Source: Aulosira sp. ZfuVER01 (lineage in GTDB: Bacteria; Cyanobacteriota; Cyanobacteriia; Cyanobacteriales; Nostocaceae). Taken from it: a stretch of DNA of 64,000 nucleotides. Of the stretch, positions 11,841 to 36,588 are shown one piece after another; within the stretch, counting starts at the first letter, position 1, and each line of letters opens with the position of its first letter. The notes under the pieces are model-generated. The model was given only the letters and a program-made list of their open reading frames with translations, searched no databases and was not told the origin of the DNA. The translations under genes were made by a program, and so were the position numbers. Where the stretch lies: assembly GCA_034530615.2 (NCBI GenBank), contig JAVRCV020000053.1, positions 81,048 to 145,047 on the forward strand. Direction: 5' to 3'.

Positions 11841-13733
11841 TTAGATATTAATACTCTGAGGAATTTTAGAAGGGAGCAGATACTCATAGGCTGGACGGTT
11901 CAAGTTGCGTTGATTAATAGTATGTTCAACTTGCTGGAGATTTTTTTGGAATGTCTGCAACAAGGGTTGTACACGCCGATCGCTAAAGTATCCCTGTGGA
12001 TATTCACCAAGTTTGTTGTAATATACAGAACCTAATAAACCGAGTAGATTATATTGCCGTTGTGCTTGATTCAAGGGTGGAAGTAAATTCAGGTAGTCTT
12101 GCTCAGTAACTTCTCCTTTGAGAATTGAAGCTGGCAAATAACCAGCCATTGGCAAGGCAGCAGCATAGCCCATCAAATCTTTTTGGGGAAAGTTAACCGC
12201 AGCATGTTGAGCGCTGGCTGTGAAAATAATTAATGTAGCCGCATCTACTAAGTATTCTCGCGTTTGGATACGTCCATCTTCACCAAAATCGCTGATGCGA
12301 CCACCATTGTAAGCTTGGACTTCAGTTGCCCACTTCTGAAGGGCTGCATCATTCTGAATGTCGTTATCTGTAGCGTAGTAAAGGTTCAGGTAGTCTGCAA
12401 CCCACTGATGAATGGTATCCCAGACTAACAGTGCATCGTCCCGGTAAGGATACACAGGCAACAAATTAGGATCGTCTACACCACGCTGCTGGAATTGCTT
12501 CCGTAACATGGCACTATTGAAGCCATAGCTTTGTAAGCCACGCACTGCTAAAACCCGAGAGTTATCAATCGTTGATGAGAGTAATCTATCGACCCCACCC
12601 CCAGGAGCGATTAAAATCCTTTGGGCTGCATCGTTAATTGCTAAAGTGCCTTCAAAATGGGAGCGCAGCAGTAAGCCAAGGGGATGAGTGGCTGGCAACT
12701 GGCGATGGGTAGCCATGACAAAAGCACCAACGAACAGGTGTGTTCTGGCTAGGTGGGTGACAGGTTCGTGGAAGTTAGCATCTGCTATCTGTACAATTGT
12801 TTTGGCAAATAGCCAAGCGTATTTACCTGAGTTAGGGGTGATAATCGGGTAATCGGGGCCGGGAGTTTGGCCGCATTGAATGGCGACTGGACGTAGTAAA
12901 CGAGAGAGTTTTGAGCCTTTGGGTACAGCAAATAGTGCTAGGGGCGCATAGACATATTTTTGGTCTTGTAGATATATACCGTCGATCGCACCCTCGAAAA
13001 TTCCATAATCCGCTAGGTAAAGTCTTCCTTCTTCTCCCGCTGCTTGTAATGAATCATCCGTTCCCATCACCGCCTGGTAATGTTCGTCGGTGACAGGGAA
13101 GTGATCGCTCAGGCTGGTTACTCGCTGAATCATTACGGGATTGTAGCCAGCTACTCGCATATAGGCAAAGACTTTATCTTCCTGGAAAGTTTTGCCAATC
13201 GCTGGCACTCCAATCATAGGGAACAACTTTTCATAATCATTTAGGTTGGTCACATGACCTGTAGGTTGTCCTTCACGCAACAGCGTAATAGCCCGATTCA
13301 AAGCATCTTTGAGAATTACAAGTCCGTTTTCCTTGAGAATAGAAAATAACAGATCGTCAAGTTCTCTAAAATCTTTGGATATTCCTTTGATTAAAAACTG
13401 AGGGAGAATTTGCAGAAGCCTAGCAATAATACTGATTTTGAACGGTATTGCCCCCTTAAATAAGGCTTCTAGGATAAACATTTTCACATCATCACGGATC
13501 GTCGACTTGGAACCACGATTGCCTCGGTTGGTAATCAAGGTATTGAGAAAAATATTGCGTAACTGCTGGGCTAGCAAAAAATACCAGTTCGCGGAGAAGC
13601 GTTCCGTAGCAGGAAGCTCATCTACCATCGCGATCGGTGGAATATGGGTGTAGTTATATTTATATTCTTGCCTAGCAACCTCTAGGCTCGCAGTAACGGG
13701 AATTATTGAATTGTTTTGTGATGAAGCAGTCAT
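11841..13733 (-). CDS. Lipoxygenase
   Basis: Iron-ligand motifs HEPVTHLARTH and QHAAVNF; C-terminal SINI. Confidence 0.95.
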   Translation of the reverse strand: MTASSQNNSIIPVTASLEVARQEYKYNYTHIPPIAMVDELPATERFSANWYFLLAQQLRNIFLNTLITNRGNRGSKSTIRDDVKMFILEALFKGAIPFKISIIARLLQILPQFLIKGISKDFRELDDLLFSILKENGLVILKDALNRAITLLREGQPTGHVTNLNDYEKLFPMIGVPAIGKTFQEDKVFAYMRVAGYNPVMIQRVTSLSDHFPVTDEHYQAVMGTDDSLQAAGEEGRLYLADYGIFEGAIDGIYLQDQKYVYAPLALFAVPKGSKLSRLLRPVAIQCGQTPGPDYPIITPNSGKYAWLFAKTIVQIADANFHEPVTHLARTHLFVGAFVMATHRQLPATHPLGLLLRSHFEGTLAINDAAQRILIAPGGGVDRLLSSTIDNSRVLAVRGLQSYGFNSAMLRKQFQQRGVDDPNLLPVYPYRDDALLVWDTIHQWVADYLNLYYATDNDIQNDAALQKWATEVQAYNGGRISDFGEDGRIQTREYLVDAATLIIFTASAQHAAVNFPQKDLMGYAAALPMAGYLPASILKGEVTEQDYLNLLPPLNQAQRQYNLLGLLGSVYYNKLGEYPQGYFSDRRVQPLLQTFQKNLQQVEHTINQRNLNRPAYEYLLPSKIPQSINI

Positions 13734-14621: not shown

Positions 14622-16211
14622 TTAACTAACTACGGCTTCTGCTTTTTCCTGCACAGGTGGCACATAAGGTTTTTCTGCACCTTGGGCGAGATACTCTGCT
14701 AGCTGAGTTTCAATTTGATCGCGCACAATTTGGCGATATTCGAGAAAATGCTCGTTGTGGGCACAGGCTGAGAGGTAATGCTCGGCAACTCCTGGGTTAT
14801 GCTTGATGATGCTAAATAAGTGATGCCAGAATTTCCAGCGGGTTTCGCGTTTGATGCCTTGTCGCCAGATGACAATCAACAGCGCTTTAATGACTATCAA
14901 CTCTGGCCATTTAAATGGGGCTTTCCAAGTTGGCGCACCCATCATTAAAAAGCAGCGGTAAGTACGATCCAAATACTTCACTGGATCGTATAAAGCACAA
15001 AATGCTTCAATGTATTCTCTGGCAATATCTTCTAAGGGACGGGTAGCAATAAAGTTCATCAAAGTTGTCTGGTTGATGTTGCCATCTTTGTTTTCCCGCA
15101 ATCTGCCTTCTTTCTTCAGGCGATGCCACAAGGCTGTGTTGGGTAGCGCTTGCAACATAGCAAAGGTAGTAGAAGGAATTCCTGCTTGTTCGGCAAAACG
15201 GACAATGCGATCGCCTGCACCTGCTTTTTCGCCATCAAATCCGATAATAAACCCAGCCATTGGGCGCAATCCAGCTTTGATGATACTTTGCACAGCGTCG
15301 GTGAGAGAACTGCGGGTATTTTGAAACTTTTTCGTCAGTTGCAAGCTATCTTCATCTGGTGTTTCAATACCTAAAAATACCGCTGCAAAACCAGATTCAA
15401 CCATCAATTCCATCAATTCTGGATCTTGTGCTAAATCAATTGAAGCTTCGGTATCAAAGCGGAAGGGATATTGATGTTCTTGCATCCAAACTTTTAACTC
15501 TTTCAGCAACAATTTCACATTGCGTTTGTTGCCAATAAAGTTGTCATCAACCATGAACACACCCCGCCGCCAACCTAATTCATAAAGATAATCTAATTCT
15601 GCTAATAGTTGGGCTGGGGTTTTGGTACGTGGTTTGCGGCCATAGAGAACAATAATGTCACAGAATTCGCATTGGAAAGGACAACCCCGCGAAAACTGCA
15701 CCGACATCATATCGTAAGCATCAAATTCTAATAAATCAAAGCGGGGTACTGGTGTGCTTGTGACATCTGGTTTTTCACTCGTCCGGAAAGTACCAGAGGT
15801 TTCGCCTCTTTGAATCGCCTCAACGAACATAGGTAAGGTGATTTCCCCTTCATCCAAAATCAGAAAATCTGCGCCCACGTTTTGTACTTCATGGGGTGTA
15901 GAGGTGGGGTAGGGGCCGCCCACAGCGACTAACTTACCACGCCGTTTTGCTTCCTGGATTTGGTCTAGTAAGTCCTGTTTCTGGACAATCATGGCGGAGA
16001 AAATGACCACATCAGCCCAAGCCCATTCGGCTTCGGTAACTGGACGGATGTTGCGATCGACTAGCTTATATTCCCATTCTTGAGGGAGAATTGCCGCCAC
16101 TGTTACTAAACCCAAAGGTGGTAACAAAACCTTGCGATCGACTAACGCCAAAATTTTCTCGTATGACCAAAAGGTTTTCGGAAATATTGGATACACCAGT
16201 AGGACTCGCAT
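14622..16211 (-). CDS. B12-binding radical SAM protein (DUF4070 type)
   Basis: SRGCPFQCEFC CxxxCxxC motif; N-terminal PPLGL cobalamin-binding region. Confidence 0.92.
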   Translation of the reverse strand: MRVLLVYPIFPKTFWSYEKILALVDRKVLLPPLGLVTVAAILPQEWEYKLVDRNIRPVTEAEWAWADVVIFSAMIVQKQDLLDQIQEAKRRGKLVAVGGPYPTSTPHEVQNVGADFLILDEGEITLPMFVEAIQRGETSGTFRTSEKPDVTSTPVPRFDLLEFDAYDMMSVQFSRGCPFQCEFCDIIVLYGRKPRTKTPAQLLAELDYLYELGWRRGVFMVDDNFIGNKRNVKLLLKELKVWMQEHQYPFRFDTEASIDLAQDPELMELMVESGFAAVFLGIETPDEDSLQLTKKFQNTRSSLTDAVQSIIKAGLRPMAGFIIGFDGEKAGAGDRIVRFAEQAGIPSTTFAMLQALPNTALWHRLKKEGRLRENKDGNINQTTLMNFIATRPLEDIAREYIEAFCALYDPVKYLDRTYRCFLMMGAPTWKAPFKWPELIVIKALLIVIWRQGIKRETRWKFWHHLFSIIKHNPGVAEHYLSACAHNEHFLEYRQIVRDQIETQLAEYLAQGAEKPYVPPVQEKAEAVVS

Positions 16212-16331
16212 ACAGTATCAACCCTCACACTTTGATTGTTATCCCACTTTAACGAAAATTAAGACTTATTGACTTTTTATCTTAGCGGGTTCATCTGTTT
16301 CCTAAAATTTTTTCTTCCACATAAATGCGCT

Positions 16332-16573
16332 GTAGGGGTTTAGCAATGCTCATTGGTGTCAACTTAAGCTAAAAATAGCCTCTCCGGTAGCTTTGTCACT
16401 CGCCTGAGAATGAATTCTCAGGCTAATAGCCCAAGTCTACTAAAGTAGACTCAAGATTTTGAGGATATTTAGTCATCTTCAAATGACTTTTGCTATTAGC
16501 AAGGAACTTCAGTTCCTTGCGGGATGAGGGTTTCGCGTTAAGTTGACACGTATGAGCAATGCTAAACCTCTAC
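16332..16573. repeat. REP GTAGGGGTTTAGCAATGCTAAACCTCTAC, split by a MITE
   Basis: Left half 16332-16350 and right half 16555-16573 share the duplicated AGCAATGCT. Confidence 0.9.
16351..16554. mobile_element. 204-bp non-autonomous MITE of the neighbouring IS4 family
   Basis: Ends CATTGGTGTCAACTTAAG ... TTAAGTTGACACGTATG; 9-bp target duplication AGCAATGCT; no ORF. Confidence 0.92.
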
Positions 16574-16583
16574 GATATATCTA

Positions 16584-17150
16584 CTAACAAGGTAAATCTA
16601 ATAGCAATCCTTTATGCTCAGAAACATCACCAGGATTTTTAATATCGCGTTCCCATACTAAAGGATTATTAATAATGTATTCTCTAATTGCAGCTAAAGA
16701 TTGTTCATTTCTATTAATATGTTCATAAAAATTTCTTTGCCATACCGAAGATATACCTTTTTGATTGCAAATATAATTAATCTTTTTAGTAACGGCACTT
16801 TTATAAGATCTAACTACACAAGGTATTGAACCAGCTACCATTTTCCCGTATTTTCTTGGCTCGTCTTCTCTCTTGGTTGTGTTAATAATCCATAATATCC
16901 CATGAATATGATTGGGCATAATTACAAATACATCTAATTGTATATGCGGGAAATGTTGAGGAATTTCTCTCCAGGATTCACGGGCAATTGTACCGAGTAA
17001 ATTTAATTTCATTTGCCCTTGTTTTATATCACCAAAAATACATTGTCTGTCTTTTGTGCAAATGGTAATAAAATATGCACCCTCTTGGGTGTAATCGTGG
17101 TCTTTTAATCTGATGGAACGGCGATGATGAATTTGTGGATTATAGGACAC
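16584..17150 (-). CDS. REP-associated tyrosine transposase (RAYT, Y1 HUH)
   Basis: RRSIRL..YFITICT, MPNHIHGI (HUH), WQRNFYEH and YIINNP (catalytic Tyr); flanked by inverted REPs. Confidence 0.92.
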   Translation of the reverse strand: MSYNPQIHHRRSIRLKDHDYTQEGAYFITICTKDRQCIFGDIKQGQMKLNLLGTIARESWREIPQHFPHIQLDVFVIMPNHIHGILWIINTTKREDEPRKYGKMVAGSIPCVVRSYKSAVTKKINYICNQKGISSVWQRNFYEHINRNEQSLAAIREYIINNPLVWERDIKNPGDVSEHKGLLLDLPC

Positions 17151-17286
17151 TGTAATTCTGAGAGATTATCTTGACAAAAGTCTAAATAATTTTTTGTTAC
17201 GGTCATAATCACAATTATTTTATAATATTGTAATGCCGTAATTTTTTCATCTGGGAATATCCTATGGGTAGGGGTTTAGCATTGCT

Positions 17287-18698
17287 CATTGGTGTCAACT
17301 TAAGCTTGAAGTAACCATAAGATGTAATCTAAGAACATCAATTCAGGTGTTCTTAGTGATACATCATGAGTAGAAAACGACCAGCGCGAACCGGAAACCC
17401 AGATTTGCGGCAGCAAAAGCATGTACCAGCGCCACCAATCGAGGAAATCGAGAAAGAAATATTTTCATTGCTATCTCCTGTAAGCTTCAAACCCTTGAGA
17501 TTGTATGAAGACGAACAAAAGAAAAAATTCCGCGACAGAATCTTAACACTGCCGATGATGATGGCGATCGTGGTGAGTTTAGTATATCGGCAGATTCCTG
17601 GGTTAAGAGAAGTGCAAAGGGTATTGTCACAAGAGGGATTGTTATGGGTCGAGCGAATCGAAGTCAGTGCCCAAGCAGTGTCAAAAAGATTGCGAACATT
17701 ACCAATAGAATTATTTGCACAAATTTTTGCGCAAGTAATGGCAAGAATCAATAATCAACCACAAAATCAAGCAATTCCTGAGAATTGGCAACTAGTATCT
17801 CAGAAATTCACAGCCATCTGGATTGCGGACGGTTCAACCCTAGAAGCATTACGAAGGAAGTTAAAAGCCCTCAAAGAACAAGAAAAAACACTTGCAGGCA
17901 AAATGATGATGGTGGTGGAAGCCTTTAGCCATCGACCGGTGACAACCTGGTATACAACCAACAGCAAAGCTAATGATAAAACTTGGTGTGATCAATTACT
18001 TGAAAGCTTACCAGTTAGCGGATTACTGATTTTTGATTTAGGATTTTTCAAATTTCCTTGGTTTGATGCATTTACAAAAGCAAACAAGTTTTTTGTCACG
18101 CGACTGCGAGAAAAAACCTCTTACAAGGTCACTCGTTGTTTAGCTAATGCCCCATTCTACCGTGACGAAATTATAGATATGGGAGAATACCGCTCTAATC
18201 CTTGTCAGTACCCAGTACGTCTGGTTTCTGTATTGTGGGGTTCAAATTGGTACTATGATTTAACAAACGTACTAGATCCGCAAATCTTATCTGCACAGCA
18301 AGTTTGTGAATTATATCGAAGACGTTGGCGAGTTGAAGATGCTTTTTTGCTAACCAAGCGGCTTTTAGGTCTAGCTTATATCTGGGTTGGTGATAGTCAT
18401 GGTGTCGAAATTCAAATTTTTGCCACTTGGATTTTTTATGCTGTTCTCAATCAATTATGTCTTGATGTAGCGATCGCATTGAATCAACCTTTAGACCGAA
18501 TTTCTACAGAGATGGTTTTCCGCAGTTTATACCATTTCTCCCAAGCTGTTCTCCGTGGTGATGCTAGTGAGGCTGTTCCTTATCTTGTCGAACATCAAAA
18601 GCTCTTTGGATTAGTCAAAACCAGGCGTAAGCGTCATCGAGAGATTGACGCTTACACTCAACAAATTTGGGCTTGATCTTCTTAAGTTGACACCAATG
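17287..18698 (+). mobile_element. Complete IS4-family insertion sequence (1412 bp)
   Basis: Perfect 18-bp terminal inverted repeats CATTGGTGTCAACTTAAG / CTTAAGTTGACACCAATG; 9-bp target duplication; one transposase ORF. Confidence 0.95.
17366..18676 (+). CDS. IS4-family DDE transposase
   Basis: WIADGS, IFDLGF and YRRRWRVEDAF..K (YREK signature). Confidence 0.95.
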   Translation: MSRKRPARTGNPDLRQQKHVPAPPIEEIEKEIFSLLSPVSFKPLRLYEDEQKKKFRDRILTLPMMMAIVVSLVYRQIPGLREVQRVLSQEGLLWVERIEVSAQAVSKRLRTLPIELFAQIFAQVMARINNQPQNQAIPENWQLVSQKFTAIWIADGSTLEALRRKLKALKEQEKTLAGKMMMVVEAFSHRPVTTWYTTNSKANDKTWCDQLLESLPVSGLLIFDLGFFKFPWFDAFTKANKFFVTRLREKTSYKVTRCLANAPFYRDEIIDMGEYRSNPCQYPVRLVSVLWGSNWYYDLTNVLDPQILSAQQVCELYRRRWRVEDAFLLTKRLLGLAYIWVGDSHGVEIQIFATWIFYAVLNQLCLDVAIALNQPLDRISTEMVFRSLYHFSQAVLRGDASEAVPYLVEHQKLFGLVKTRRKRHREIDAYTQQIWA

Positions 18699-18713
18699 AG
18701 CATTGCTAAACCC

Positions 18714-19673
18714 CTACATTGATTTACTTTTGACACCGCTAATTTTCAAAACGTCACTCATAGTTGCACAGTAATTTGGTAAACCAAAACTGGCGGGATT
18801 GATGGCATTTTCGTAAGTAAAATGTCGATAGTTCATGCAGAATCTATCCCAAGCAGCCATTTGAATTCGGAAGACGGCAATAATGATGTTGGCTAATGTG
18901 ATAGATAATGGAATGCGAAAGTAAATCTTTTTACCTAGATAGGCGCAGACTTGTTCTATAGCTTGGTTAACAGTTAATTGCTGTTGACCTAAAACAAACT
19001 TGCGCGGCCCTGTTTCAATAGGAGGATGTTCAATTAAATATTTGACTGTAGTCGCAATGTCTTTTCCGTGAATAAAGTGGAAACTGCCATCGGCTTGCAA
19101 AAACCGAGCTAAATTAATATACTTTGCGACTTCGGGAATTCCAGATGTTACAGCAGAATAGGGCTTGTTGGCATCGCCGCCTAAAACTAATGTGGGAAAA
19201 ACTGTGGTAATTTTAGGTGCGATCGCCAATTTTGATATTTGCTGCAAACACTCATACTTAGAACTGACGTAATCTGTACCAATTTCTCCAGCTTCTTTGA
19301 GTGGTTGATTGTGGCGATTTAAAACGCTAGCTGTAGAAAAGTAAATTACCTGTTCGCATCTCTCTGGATCTAGCAGCTTCAGCAATTCTAGAGTTTTATT
19401 TACATTAATATTAAAGGTTCCATCGCCGCCCCAAGCTGTTGCTGTTAGTACCGCAATATCAATTGTTGATAGCAATTGGGCAAACTGGCTAATTTGTTGC
19501 ATATCACCTTGCAACACAGTGATACCTGGACGCGCCTGAGTATCAACTTGCAGTTTATTGGGGTTCCTAACTAGTAGATACAGTTCGTAATTTGTTTCTT
19601 GAATTAAGGCTTCAGCTAGGTAGTGACCGATACAGCCACTTGCACCAGTCACTAAAATCCGTTTCTGGCTCAT
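18714..19673 (-). CDS. NAD(P)-dependent epimerase/dehydratase family
   Basis: TGASGCIG Rossmann motif and YxxSK; stop codon lies inside the REP right half. Confidence 0.88.
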   Translation of the reverse strand: MSQKRILVTGASGCIGHYLAEALIQETNYELYLLVRNPNKLQVDTQARPGITVLQGDMQQISQFAQLLSTIDIAVLTATAWGGDGTFNINVNKTLELLKLLDPERCEQVIYFSTASVLNRHNQPLKEAGEIGTDYVSSKYECLQQISKLAIAPKITTVFPTLVLGGDANKPYSAVTSGIPEVAKYINLARFLQADGSFHFIHGKDIATTVKYLIEHPPIETGPRKFVLGQQQLTVNQAIEQVCAYLGKKIYFRIPLSITLANIIIAVFRIQMAAWDRFCMNYRHFTYENAINPASFGLPNYCATMSDVLKISGVKSKSM

Positions 19674-19822: not shown

Positions 19823-19851
19823 GTATGGGTTTAGCAATGCTAAACCCCCAC
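19823..19851. repeat. Uninterrupted REP copy GTATGGGTTTAGCAATGCTAAACCCCCAC
   Basis: Matches the reconstructed pre-insertion REPs that flank the RAYT. Confidence 0.88.
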
Positions 19852-36559: not shown

Positions 36560-36588
36560 GTAGGTATTTAGCAATGCTAATCACCTAT
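36560..36588. repeat. Degenerate copy of the RAYT-associated REP
   Basis: GTAGGTATTTAGCAATGCTAATCACCTAT. Confidence 0.75.

Follow-up and report, generated by a model that had tools for sequence, protein, structure and literature searches.

Insertion of an IS4-family element and end-sharing MITEs in register with half-sites of RAYT-associated REPs in Nostocaceae

Within a 64,000-nucleotide stretch of Aulosira sp. ZfuVER01 (contig JAVRCV020000053.1, positions 81,048 to 145,047; the whole stretch is called the window below), a gene for a REP-associated tyrosine transposase (RAYT, or TnpA-REP) lies between two repetitive extragenic palindromes (REPs). [quoted passage not shown] We found that elements with these ends lie mostly in REPs and that their place is constant relative to a GTAGGGG half-site, which lies 10 nt outside the target duplication whatever the length of the latter (8–10 bp). 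The overall explanation that we consider probable, if well short of assured, is an IS4 lineage that is placed, together with MITEs, in REPs by half-site reading, finds a safe harbour there and has been re-tuned to different REPs in its sub-lineages.

Two split REPs around a RAYT gene

Excision of 16351-16554 and of 17287-18698, each with one 9-bp copy, rebuilt two 29-bp GTAG...CTAC palindromes at the coordinates given in a preliminary description of this DNA, and the 9-bp duplications were exact at both inserts. The features of the locus are as follows.

16332..16350, + strand: left half of the downstream REP, including the first 9-bp duplication copy (16342-16350)
16351..16554, no strand: MITE of 204 bp, family B, with 17-bp TIRs at 16351-16367 and 16538-16554
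16399..16527, no strand: palindromic repeat that forms the MITE core and also occurs without TIRs (9 free matches in the genome)
16555..16573, + strand: right half of the downstream REP, with the second duplication copy at 16555-16563
16584..17150, − strand: RAYT (TnpA-REP) gene, 188 aa, frame unbroken, subclass 2.4 motifs
17268..17286, + strand: left half of the upstream REP, with the first duplication copy at 17278-17286
17287..18698, + strand: IS4-family element, 1412 bp, ISNpu8-like, with perfect 17-bp TIRs
17366..18676, + strand: DDE transposase, 436 aa, with D155, D224, E324 and Y317-R320-E324-K331
18699..18717, + strand: right half of the upstream REP, whose minus-strand GTAG gives the neighbouring gene its TAG stop
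18714..19673, − strand: epimerase-like gene, its TAG stop (18714-18716) supplied by the REP foot
19823..19851, + strand: uninterrupted REP copy with degenerate feet
36560..36588, + strand: uninterrupted, degenerate REP copy

The uninterrupted copies expected at 19823 and 36560 were thus present, though slightly degenerate. Other parts of the preliminary description needed adjustment. The 17-bp end said to be common to both inserts was exact at three of the four ends and differed at two positions at the right end of the MITE. Calling the MITE the element's own was apt for the ends, which the two have in common, and not for the interiors, which are unrelated. The inverted orientation of the two REPs is seen in the central base and one mismatch only, since the REPs are near-perfect palindromes. 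Three public sequencing runs gave contigs without a single difference from the window, which probably derives from them; each of the four insert junctions was crossed by only 10–16 nt in these contigs. No contig joint bypassing either insert was found in these three runs or in a fourth that had no coverage of the RAYT.

Insertions across the genome hold a fixed register

The genome contained 88 end-like matches, of which 30 were pairs. At the 80 strict ends, GTAGGGG (at most one mismatch) stood exactly 19 nt outside the element in 42 cases and at 20 nt in seven, and at offsets of 14–18 or 21–25 nt in none; its background rate was 8.4e-4 per position, which puts the register far beyond chance. 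A half-site 19–20 nt from the end was present on at least one side of 27/30 pairs and at 8/13 interior unpaired ends, and ten ends at contig edges, representing about five unassembled sister copies, had REP-like flanks in eight cases. The claim that most IS and MITE copies lie in REPs was therefore upheld genome-wide. With a fixed position, rebuildable REPs and 27 of 30 pairs so placed, these elements have the genomic features of a REP-targeting IS (type 1 association, Tobes and Pareja).

Among pairs with a 9-bp duplication (at most one mismatch), 17/22 rebuilt sites passed our REP test, which 113 intact places in the 8 Mb passed, versus 36 and 40 in two shuffles. All 12 insertions that matched the 9-bp core had a half-site, as against 68/1590 core sites genome-wide, and eight further insertions had the half-site and no 9-bp core. 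Core-only insertions numbered 0/22, which rules out the palindromic core alone as the target. The possibility that any GTAG hairpin serves was likewise ruled out in this genome: strand matches that ran on into a TIR made up 27/81 for the target family and 0/153 for five other GTAG-led families. One of these five is the repeat belonging to a second RAYT-like gene of the genome, hit in 0/16 cases. Only one of the 30 rebuilt sites lay within a long open frame.

About 40 REP loci were occupied and 62–75 intact (55–72 by the count of intact copies of the target REP), an occupancy of 35–39%. At this occupancy both flanks of a RAYT gene would be hit by chance in 12–15% of cases; the double hit in the window is therefore unremarkable and needs no special cause, and would be the product of two separate insertions, one per flank, into a target family in frequent use.

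The register itself was assessed on a pool of 81 distinct targets, rebuilt from the genome and from fetched loci; pairs without a 7–11-bp duplication (at most one mismatch) had been dropped beforehand and were not counted. Duplications were 7 bp long in one target, 8 bp in five, 9 bp in 63 and 10 bp in 12. On sides bearing GTAG, this motif ended 6 nt from the duplication in 5/6 (8 bp), 64/74 (9 bp) and 13/14 (10 bp) cases, so that the distance to the half-site is held while the duplication varies. Twenty of the 81 targets were poor palindromes, and 17 of these 20 retained, at one side or both, a GGG 3 nt outside the duplication. Of eight off-axis insertions, six kept the GTAG register on one side. 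Insertion at the exact centre of the REP, as first described, thus looks like a by-product: with the half-site register fixed at 10 nt, the central position is likely a matter of geometry. A G-rich half-site would be the point from which either side of the transpososome measures, and one half-site could suffice.

We propose that a Tn5-like transposase reads the G-rich half-site in a double-stranded target and joins the element 10 nt away. A 9-bp stagger on a 29-bp REP (10+9+10) would then split it at its axis, and REPs with other spacings would yield 8- or 10-bp duplications in the same register. That the transposase itself reads GTAGGGG directly seems to us rather likely on this pattern. The MITEs would be moved in trans by a transposase of the window type or a sister of it, and REPs, as many, mostly intergenic sites that are likely renewed by RAYT, would offer the lineage a safe harbour.

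The palindrome is a REP that predates the inserts

The RAYT carries N80-H81-I82-H83, W137-Q138 and Y158-I-I-N-N-P, the NH[IFV]H, WQ and YIxNNP pattern of subclass 2.4, for which PMC6006769 gives a motif table and double-foot REPs. By these motifs and its flanking cognate GT[AG]G REPs the gene fits TnpA-REP subclass 2.4; it scored 67 bits against model NF047646, below the cut-off of 80, and had no Pfam match. Many homologues (L091-L098, L420-L422) contain an in-frame REP within the gene, as described for subclass 2.4 in PMC6006769, and this in-gene REP is missing from the window RAYT and its closest homologues.

The same 29-mer lies unsplit downstream of 12/12 and upstream of 11/12 RAYT homologues from other genera (70–78% identity), more distant RAYTs have arm variants of it, and no IS end was present at any of the 16 RAYT loci examined. 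The palindrome is therefore a real REP that predates the inserts. In the relative G003, the orthologous right-hand site is a single unsplit REP with adjoining sequence identical to the window at 105/120 nt, without IS and without RAYT. REP halves thus do not appear to travel with the element, and the earlier proposal that the IS4 element and the TIR-sharing MITEs use RAYT-associated REPs as insertion sites agrees with both the paired copies and these unsplit REPs. Across the orthologous intervals of the focal locus a RAYT was found in 0/12 and a REP at this position in G003 only. Eight orthologous intervals from five species, covering three of ten other MITE sites, held neither REP nor MITE and are uninformative on empty sites. 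Because the 11 focal and these eight intervals are without the REP, we take REPs to turn over faster than these species diverge. The GTAG foot of the REP forms the stop codon of the epimerase-like gene in both the window and G003; other relatives terminate the gene differently.

We also observed that REPs often ride within a longer repeat with ATACCAATT-like ends (L031, L033, G000:C3:70270-71240), possibly an extra layer of nesting. The second, distant RAYT-like gene (G000:C22:72628-73014, L002) has its own inverted GTAG repeats on both sides, unhit by IS4 elements.

The reading frame and catalytic motifs of the window RAYT are intact, and the protein aligns unbroken with its homologues. The insert takes the place of the REP loop at the split sites, and since two of the three RAYT/REP pairs tested in PMC8266576 are affected by loop bases, RAYT may plausibly have lost activity at both. 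As potential RAYT substrates there are still dozens of intact REPs. A single extended hairpin (−61.5 kcal/mol, z −10.3) is predicted for the split left REP together with its MITE, with a base formed by pairing between the two REP halves. Disabling of this REPtron, as suggested earlier, would be no more than a possibility.

The transposase belongs to the IS4 family

The transposase scored 200.6 bits against NF033592 (cut-off 115), and its DDE spacers of about 68 and 100 residues fit D(60-110)D(100-150)E, while Y317-R320-E324-K331 fits Y(2)R(3)E(6)K. The 17-bp TIRs and the 9-bp duplication (8–10 bp across the lineage) are within the IS4 range; the family is defined by catalytic spacing, the YREK motif, short TIRs and duplications of about 8–13 bp (PMC2266710). 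In a predicted structure (pLDDT 82) the fold appears Tn5-like, as the top six Foldseek matches were Tn5 transposase or its inhibitor (best match E 1e-7, TM about 0.5). The initial assignment to IS4-family DDE elements is borne out by the model match, the catalytic residues and this predicted fold. A sequence search of PDB gave no match, and an Rfam scan gave only two microRNA-hairpin matches, at chance level and far below cut-offs.

The TIR fits the IS231 signature at 8/8 positions and likewise the looser ISH8 and IS4Sa signatures; the length of 1412 bp and the 9-bp duplication are within the range of IS4Sa and outside that of IS231. The transposase shares 86% identity with a protein that carries an ISNpu8-family annotation; the nearest other named elements are ISRel1 and IS4Bsu1, at about 25% identity. 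The element has a single open reading frame (ORF), with non-coding ends of about 80 and 20 nt, and its transposase is 3 aa shorter than close homologues. Identical multi-copy relatives in G126 and G406 imply that the lineage was recently active.

MITEs have the ends of the element and cores of their own

Three MITE families in the genome comprise 15, 8 and 3 paired copies (26 in all), and there are others besides; family B, to which the window MITE belongs, has the eight paired copies, 79–99% alike. These MITEs are short and non-coding, and have TIRs and a duplication as in the autonomous IS. The interior of the IS gave no blastn similarity to families A–C, which rules out the MITEs as internal deletions of the IS, only the ends being common; true deletion derivatives are present separately (C33, C16). 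Each family has instead its own palindromic core, which also occurs free in the genome (28, 9 and 1 matches).

Over all loci, 67 distinct short elements formed 17 clusters, 55 of them being 184–213 bp long, and such MITEs were present in 14/14 same-genus genomes at 2–123 copies each. No core-less MITE shell was found among the loci examined. Cores A, C and E adjoin 7/9 full-length DUF559 genes, on both sides in six. Halves resembling the first half of the window MITE core frame a TnpA-Y1 gene of subclass-1.2 type in G001 (L457), at one of the 29 Y1 loci examined; a gene framed by such repeats is termed a TIRtron (PMC3733652). For each MITE family several REP variants serve as sites, and this speaks more for independent insertions than for REP and MITE being copied together.

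Further observations concern the build of these elements. A one-ended family-A MITE lies directly upstream of a DUF559 gene that core-A repeats flank (G000:C3:70320-71240, L429). In L043:1218-1440 (G013), MITE ends are nested in a family-C MITE beside a full IS, and G-rich cores may themselves serve as targets. TIR positions 3–5 show few variants, in the genome and in relatives, and these recur at either end and across families. Nearly all MITEs combine one GC[TC]-type with one CG[TC]-type inner end, which suggests end exchange or a shared shell.

Sub-lineages differ in the REP they occupy

An element of G126 (55% identity) has 10/10 copies in a GTAGGGG-footed REP variant, with 10-bp duplications. 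In a cousin clade (50–55% identity), whose TIR differs by one base, 36/67 ends lie in a GTGG-footed REP and 1/67 in the GTAGGGG type. In G406, with 23 GTAG-type and 17 GTGG-type REPs intact, 5/5 full copies are in the GTGG type. The GTGG-footed REP stands on both sides of another RAYT in G002, with motifs resembling subclass 2.7. Given the cousin-clade copies, a single REP target for all elements above 53% identity is wrong, and the sub-lineages appear to have been re-tuned to different REP families.

In a sister clade (36–41% identity) 1/77 ends was in register, some of these ends not being tied to a transposase. In nine genomes holding 8–79 strict REPs the figure was 0/22; this control is based on counted REPs, and G212, G094 and G033 are REP-poor by the pattern used. 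The sister clade splits off with full support in a tree, and a quick tree puts the cousin clade on the targeting side. Two features absent from the sister clade mark elements on the targeting side, namely a motif conserved at about 272-280 and a basic helix at the C terminus; this insertion-domain motif and the helix (418-435) are candidates only for the parts that set specificity. In a metagenome bin, a Rhizobium-labelled contig (L057) carries an element of 64% identity that sits in a REP with an 8-bp duplication; the element groups with cyanobacterial ones, and the label may be a binning error.

Alternative explanations

Several observations weigh against placement by half-site reading as set out above. 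There is no half-site at 19–20 nt for 3/30 pairs and 5/13 interior unpaired ends, and at metagenome loci, which are of mixed clades, GTAGGGG stands at 18–21 nt for only 71/148 ends. Of 61 good palindromes, 53 were hit on the axis, which a transposase that reads hairpins would predict equally, and the off-axis set is small (eight). One insertion (L181) is in a GTAG palindrome without GGG arms. The ends of one element are not independent, nor are kin genomes, and a true orthologous empty site is available for one junction only (G003). The choice between REP families within a genome is a weak test (p about 0.03 in G406 under equal preference) and G472, with 80 against 9 REPs, is uninformative on it; cousin-clade copies (L467-L469, L488, L494) and also L050 and L066 are in non-REP sites. 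In the window transposase, residue 298 is Asp in place of a nearly invariant Tyr, and the enzyme may be inactive or impaired although its frame is unbroken.

The best surviving rival, which we regard as unlikely, is that a hairpin or cruciform, or a bendable symmetric site, is recognised and cut across its axis, sequence counting only through structure. The on-axis palindromes and L181 suit this view, as does a duplication length that tracks arm spacing, and ISRm22 likewise inserts at the axis. It fares worse with the five other GTAG hairpin families that were never hit, though these differ in size, with the poor palindromes that keep GGG in register, with the off-axis cases that hold the register from one foot, and with a 10-bp-duplication target whose inner arms are non-complementary (C38).

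It is also improbable, to a degree beyond that, that the transposase has no sequence read-out of its own and is tethered to REPs by a bound protein, either RAYT or some REP-binding factor of the host. At the loci examined, RAYT genes are flanked by two of the three target families, and the register is anchored on GT[AG]G, a motif that RAYTs contact (PMC8266576). RAYT-family matches were present in all five genomes checked. Yet the REP of the second RAYT is never hit, and IS4-type strand transfer takes duplex targets. RAYTs, by contrast, act on folded single strands (PMC8266576). The IS1397 and ISKpn1 transposases moreover set REP specificity, to go by the title of the report.

Similarly improbable is a mobile unit that includes the REP halves, in which REP-plus-MITE composites were copied whole, for instance by RAYT, after a few IS4 insertions. 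The single long hairpin predicted for the split REP and its MITE would suit such a unit, and the MITE copies are diverse (79–100% alike), several with common flanks beyond the REP. Against it, the IS and each MITE family occupy several REP variants with differing duplications, the REP is unsplit at 12 RAYT homologues and at the G003 site, and the identical full IS copies in G126 and in G406 have different flanks. Some REP-plus-MITE composites may have spread secondarily.

Near-random insertion followed by selection for copies in harmless intergenic repeats, to which the near-absence of rebuilt sites from long open frames could be ascribed, is scarcely credible: a one-base register is beyond what selection can produce, REPs are a tiny share of intergenic DNA, and genomes rich in REPs retain sister-clade copies outside REPs.

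Relation to known systems

The preliminary description named mainly the IS110 and IS3 families for REP-targeting ISs; an IS4 case is not new. ISRm22 of Sinorhizobium meliloti, an IS4-family element, has all its copies in REPs at the palindrome axis (PMC1525189), and has been placed in IS4Sa with conserved target arms (PMC2266710). ISRm22 and the window element are thus alike as IS4-family DDE elements in REPs, on the axis, with conserved arms on both sides. They differ in the repeats, reported as 6 bp for ISRm22 and 8–10 bp long in the window lineage, and the accessible text on ISRm22 makes no mention of a RAYT link, MITEs, a half-site register or target switching between sub-lineages. The window element also falls in a lineage already named, ISNpu8 of Nostoc punctiforme (86% identical transposase; the name comes from NCBI annotation). 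REP targeting by IS4 elements is therefore a known class of behaviour; what goes beyond the ISRm22 precedent is the half-site register, the sub-lineage-specific REPs and MITEs that are not IS deletions.

Other elements described as inserting into REPs, IS1397 and ISKpn1 (IS3) and IS621, ISPpu9, ISPpu10 and IS1594 (IS110), belong to other transposase families; IS1594 enters REP-like sequences in Anabaena (PMC3184786). IS1397 and ISKpn1 are described as related elements that each target a REP type of their own, as the sub-lineages here do. IS110 members are described as RNA-guided, whereas the window element has one ORF, TIRs and a 9-bp duplication. IS231A, of the IS4 family, prefers GGGNNNNNCCC with an 11-bp duplication (PMC2577343); it has the same TIR signature and a symmetric GGG...CCC target. 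For the window element, unlike IS231A, GGG and CCC are separated by 15 nt (5 in IS231A), fall beyond the duplication and are part of a host repeat family.

The RAYT motifs and GTAG...CTAC REP of the window match the subclass 2.4 REPtrons (PMC6006769) and cyanobacterial GTAG families (PMC3733652), for which the accessible portions of these papers report no IS or MITE insertion. Anabaena and Nostoc MITEs (Nezha; Wolk 2010, about 224 bp; Fewer 2011, 127–204 bp; tabulated in PMC3184786) have similar hosts, sizes and IS-shared TIRs, as far as the table describes them. The accessible text of PMC3542288, PMC2779907 and PMC6199540 contains nothing on targets. The literature searched, which did not extend to the main cyanobacterial MITE papers or ISfinder, so that an earlier description is possible, yielded nothing on the lineage's REP targeting, its register rule, its sub-lineage target differences or the MITE cores.

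Implications

For REP targeting by a Tn5-type DDE transposase the literature available to us offers one genomic precedent, ISRm22, and we found no mechanism described in it. Close relatives on three REP types and a non-targeting sister clade form a natural series in which the gain of a long, specific target can be tested. With over a third of one REP family occupied, these elements shape REP turnover in Nostocaceae, and population studies of REP and RAYT must allow for IS4 and MITE occupancy. A transposase that inserts into dispersed intergenic repeats could become a safe-harbour integration tool for cyanobacteria, and through the MITE cores several orphan cyanobacterial repeats can be linked to candidate enzymes.

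Tentatively, and as a composite picture that could well fail in some part, the whole may be read as a protein module that recognises REP half-sites lying 10 nt beyond the cut, with at least three re-tunings in pursuit of different RAYT/REP families. The roughly 200-bp MITEs would be shared vehicles that land in the REPs of one system and carry the repeats of others (Y1 TIRtrons, DUF559), a three-tier nest of parasites, and the 272-280 motif and helix 418-435 would be swappable.

Surroundings of the locus

The interval between a radical-SAM gene and the epimerase-like gene (window 16175-18726; orthologues L023-L034) is a hot spot. Its length ranges from 63 bp to 2.8 kb in 12 relatives, and its content comprises small gene pairs resembling toxin–antitoxin systems in several relatives (read from DNA), a lone REP in G003 and the RAYT in the window. 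Elsewhere in the window, on the − strand at 11841-13733, lies a 630-aa ORF that we take, from its motifs, to be lipoxygenase-like.

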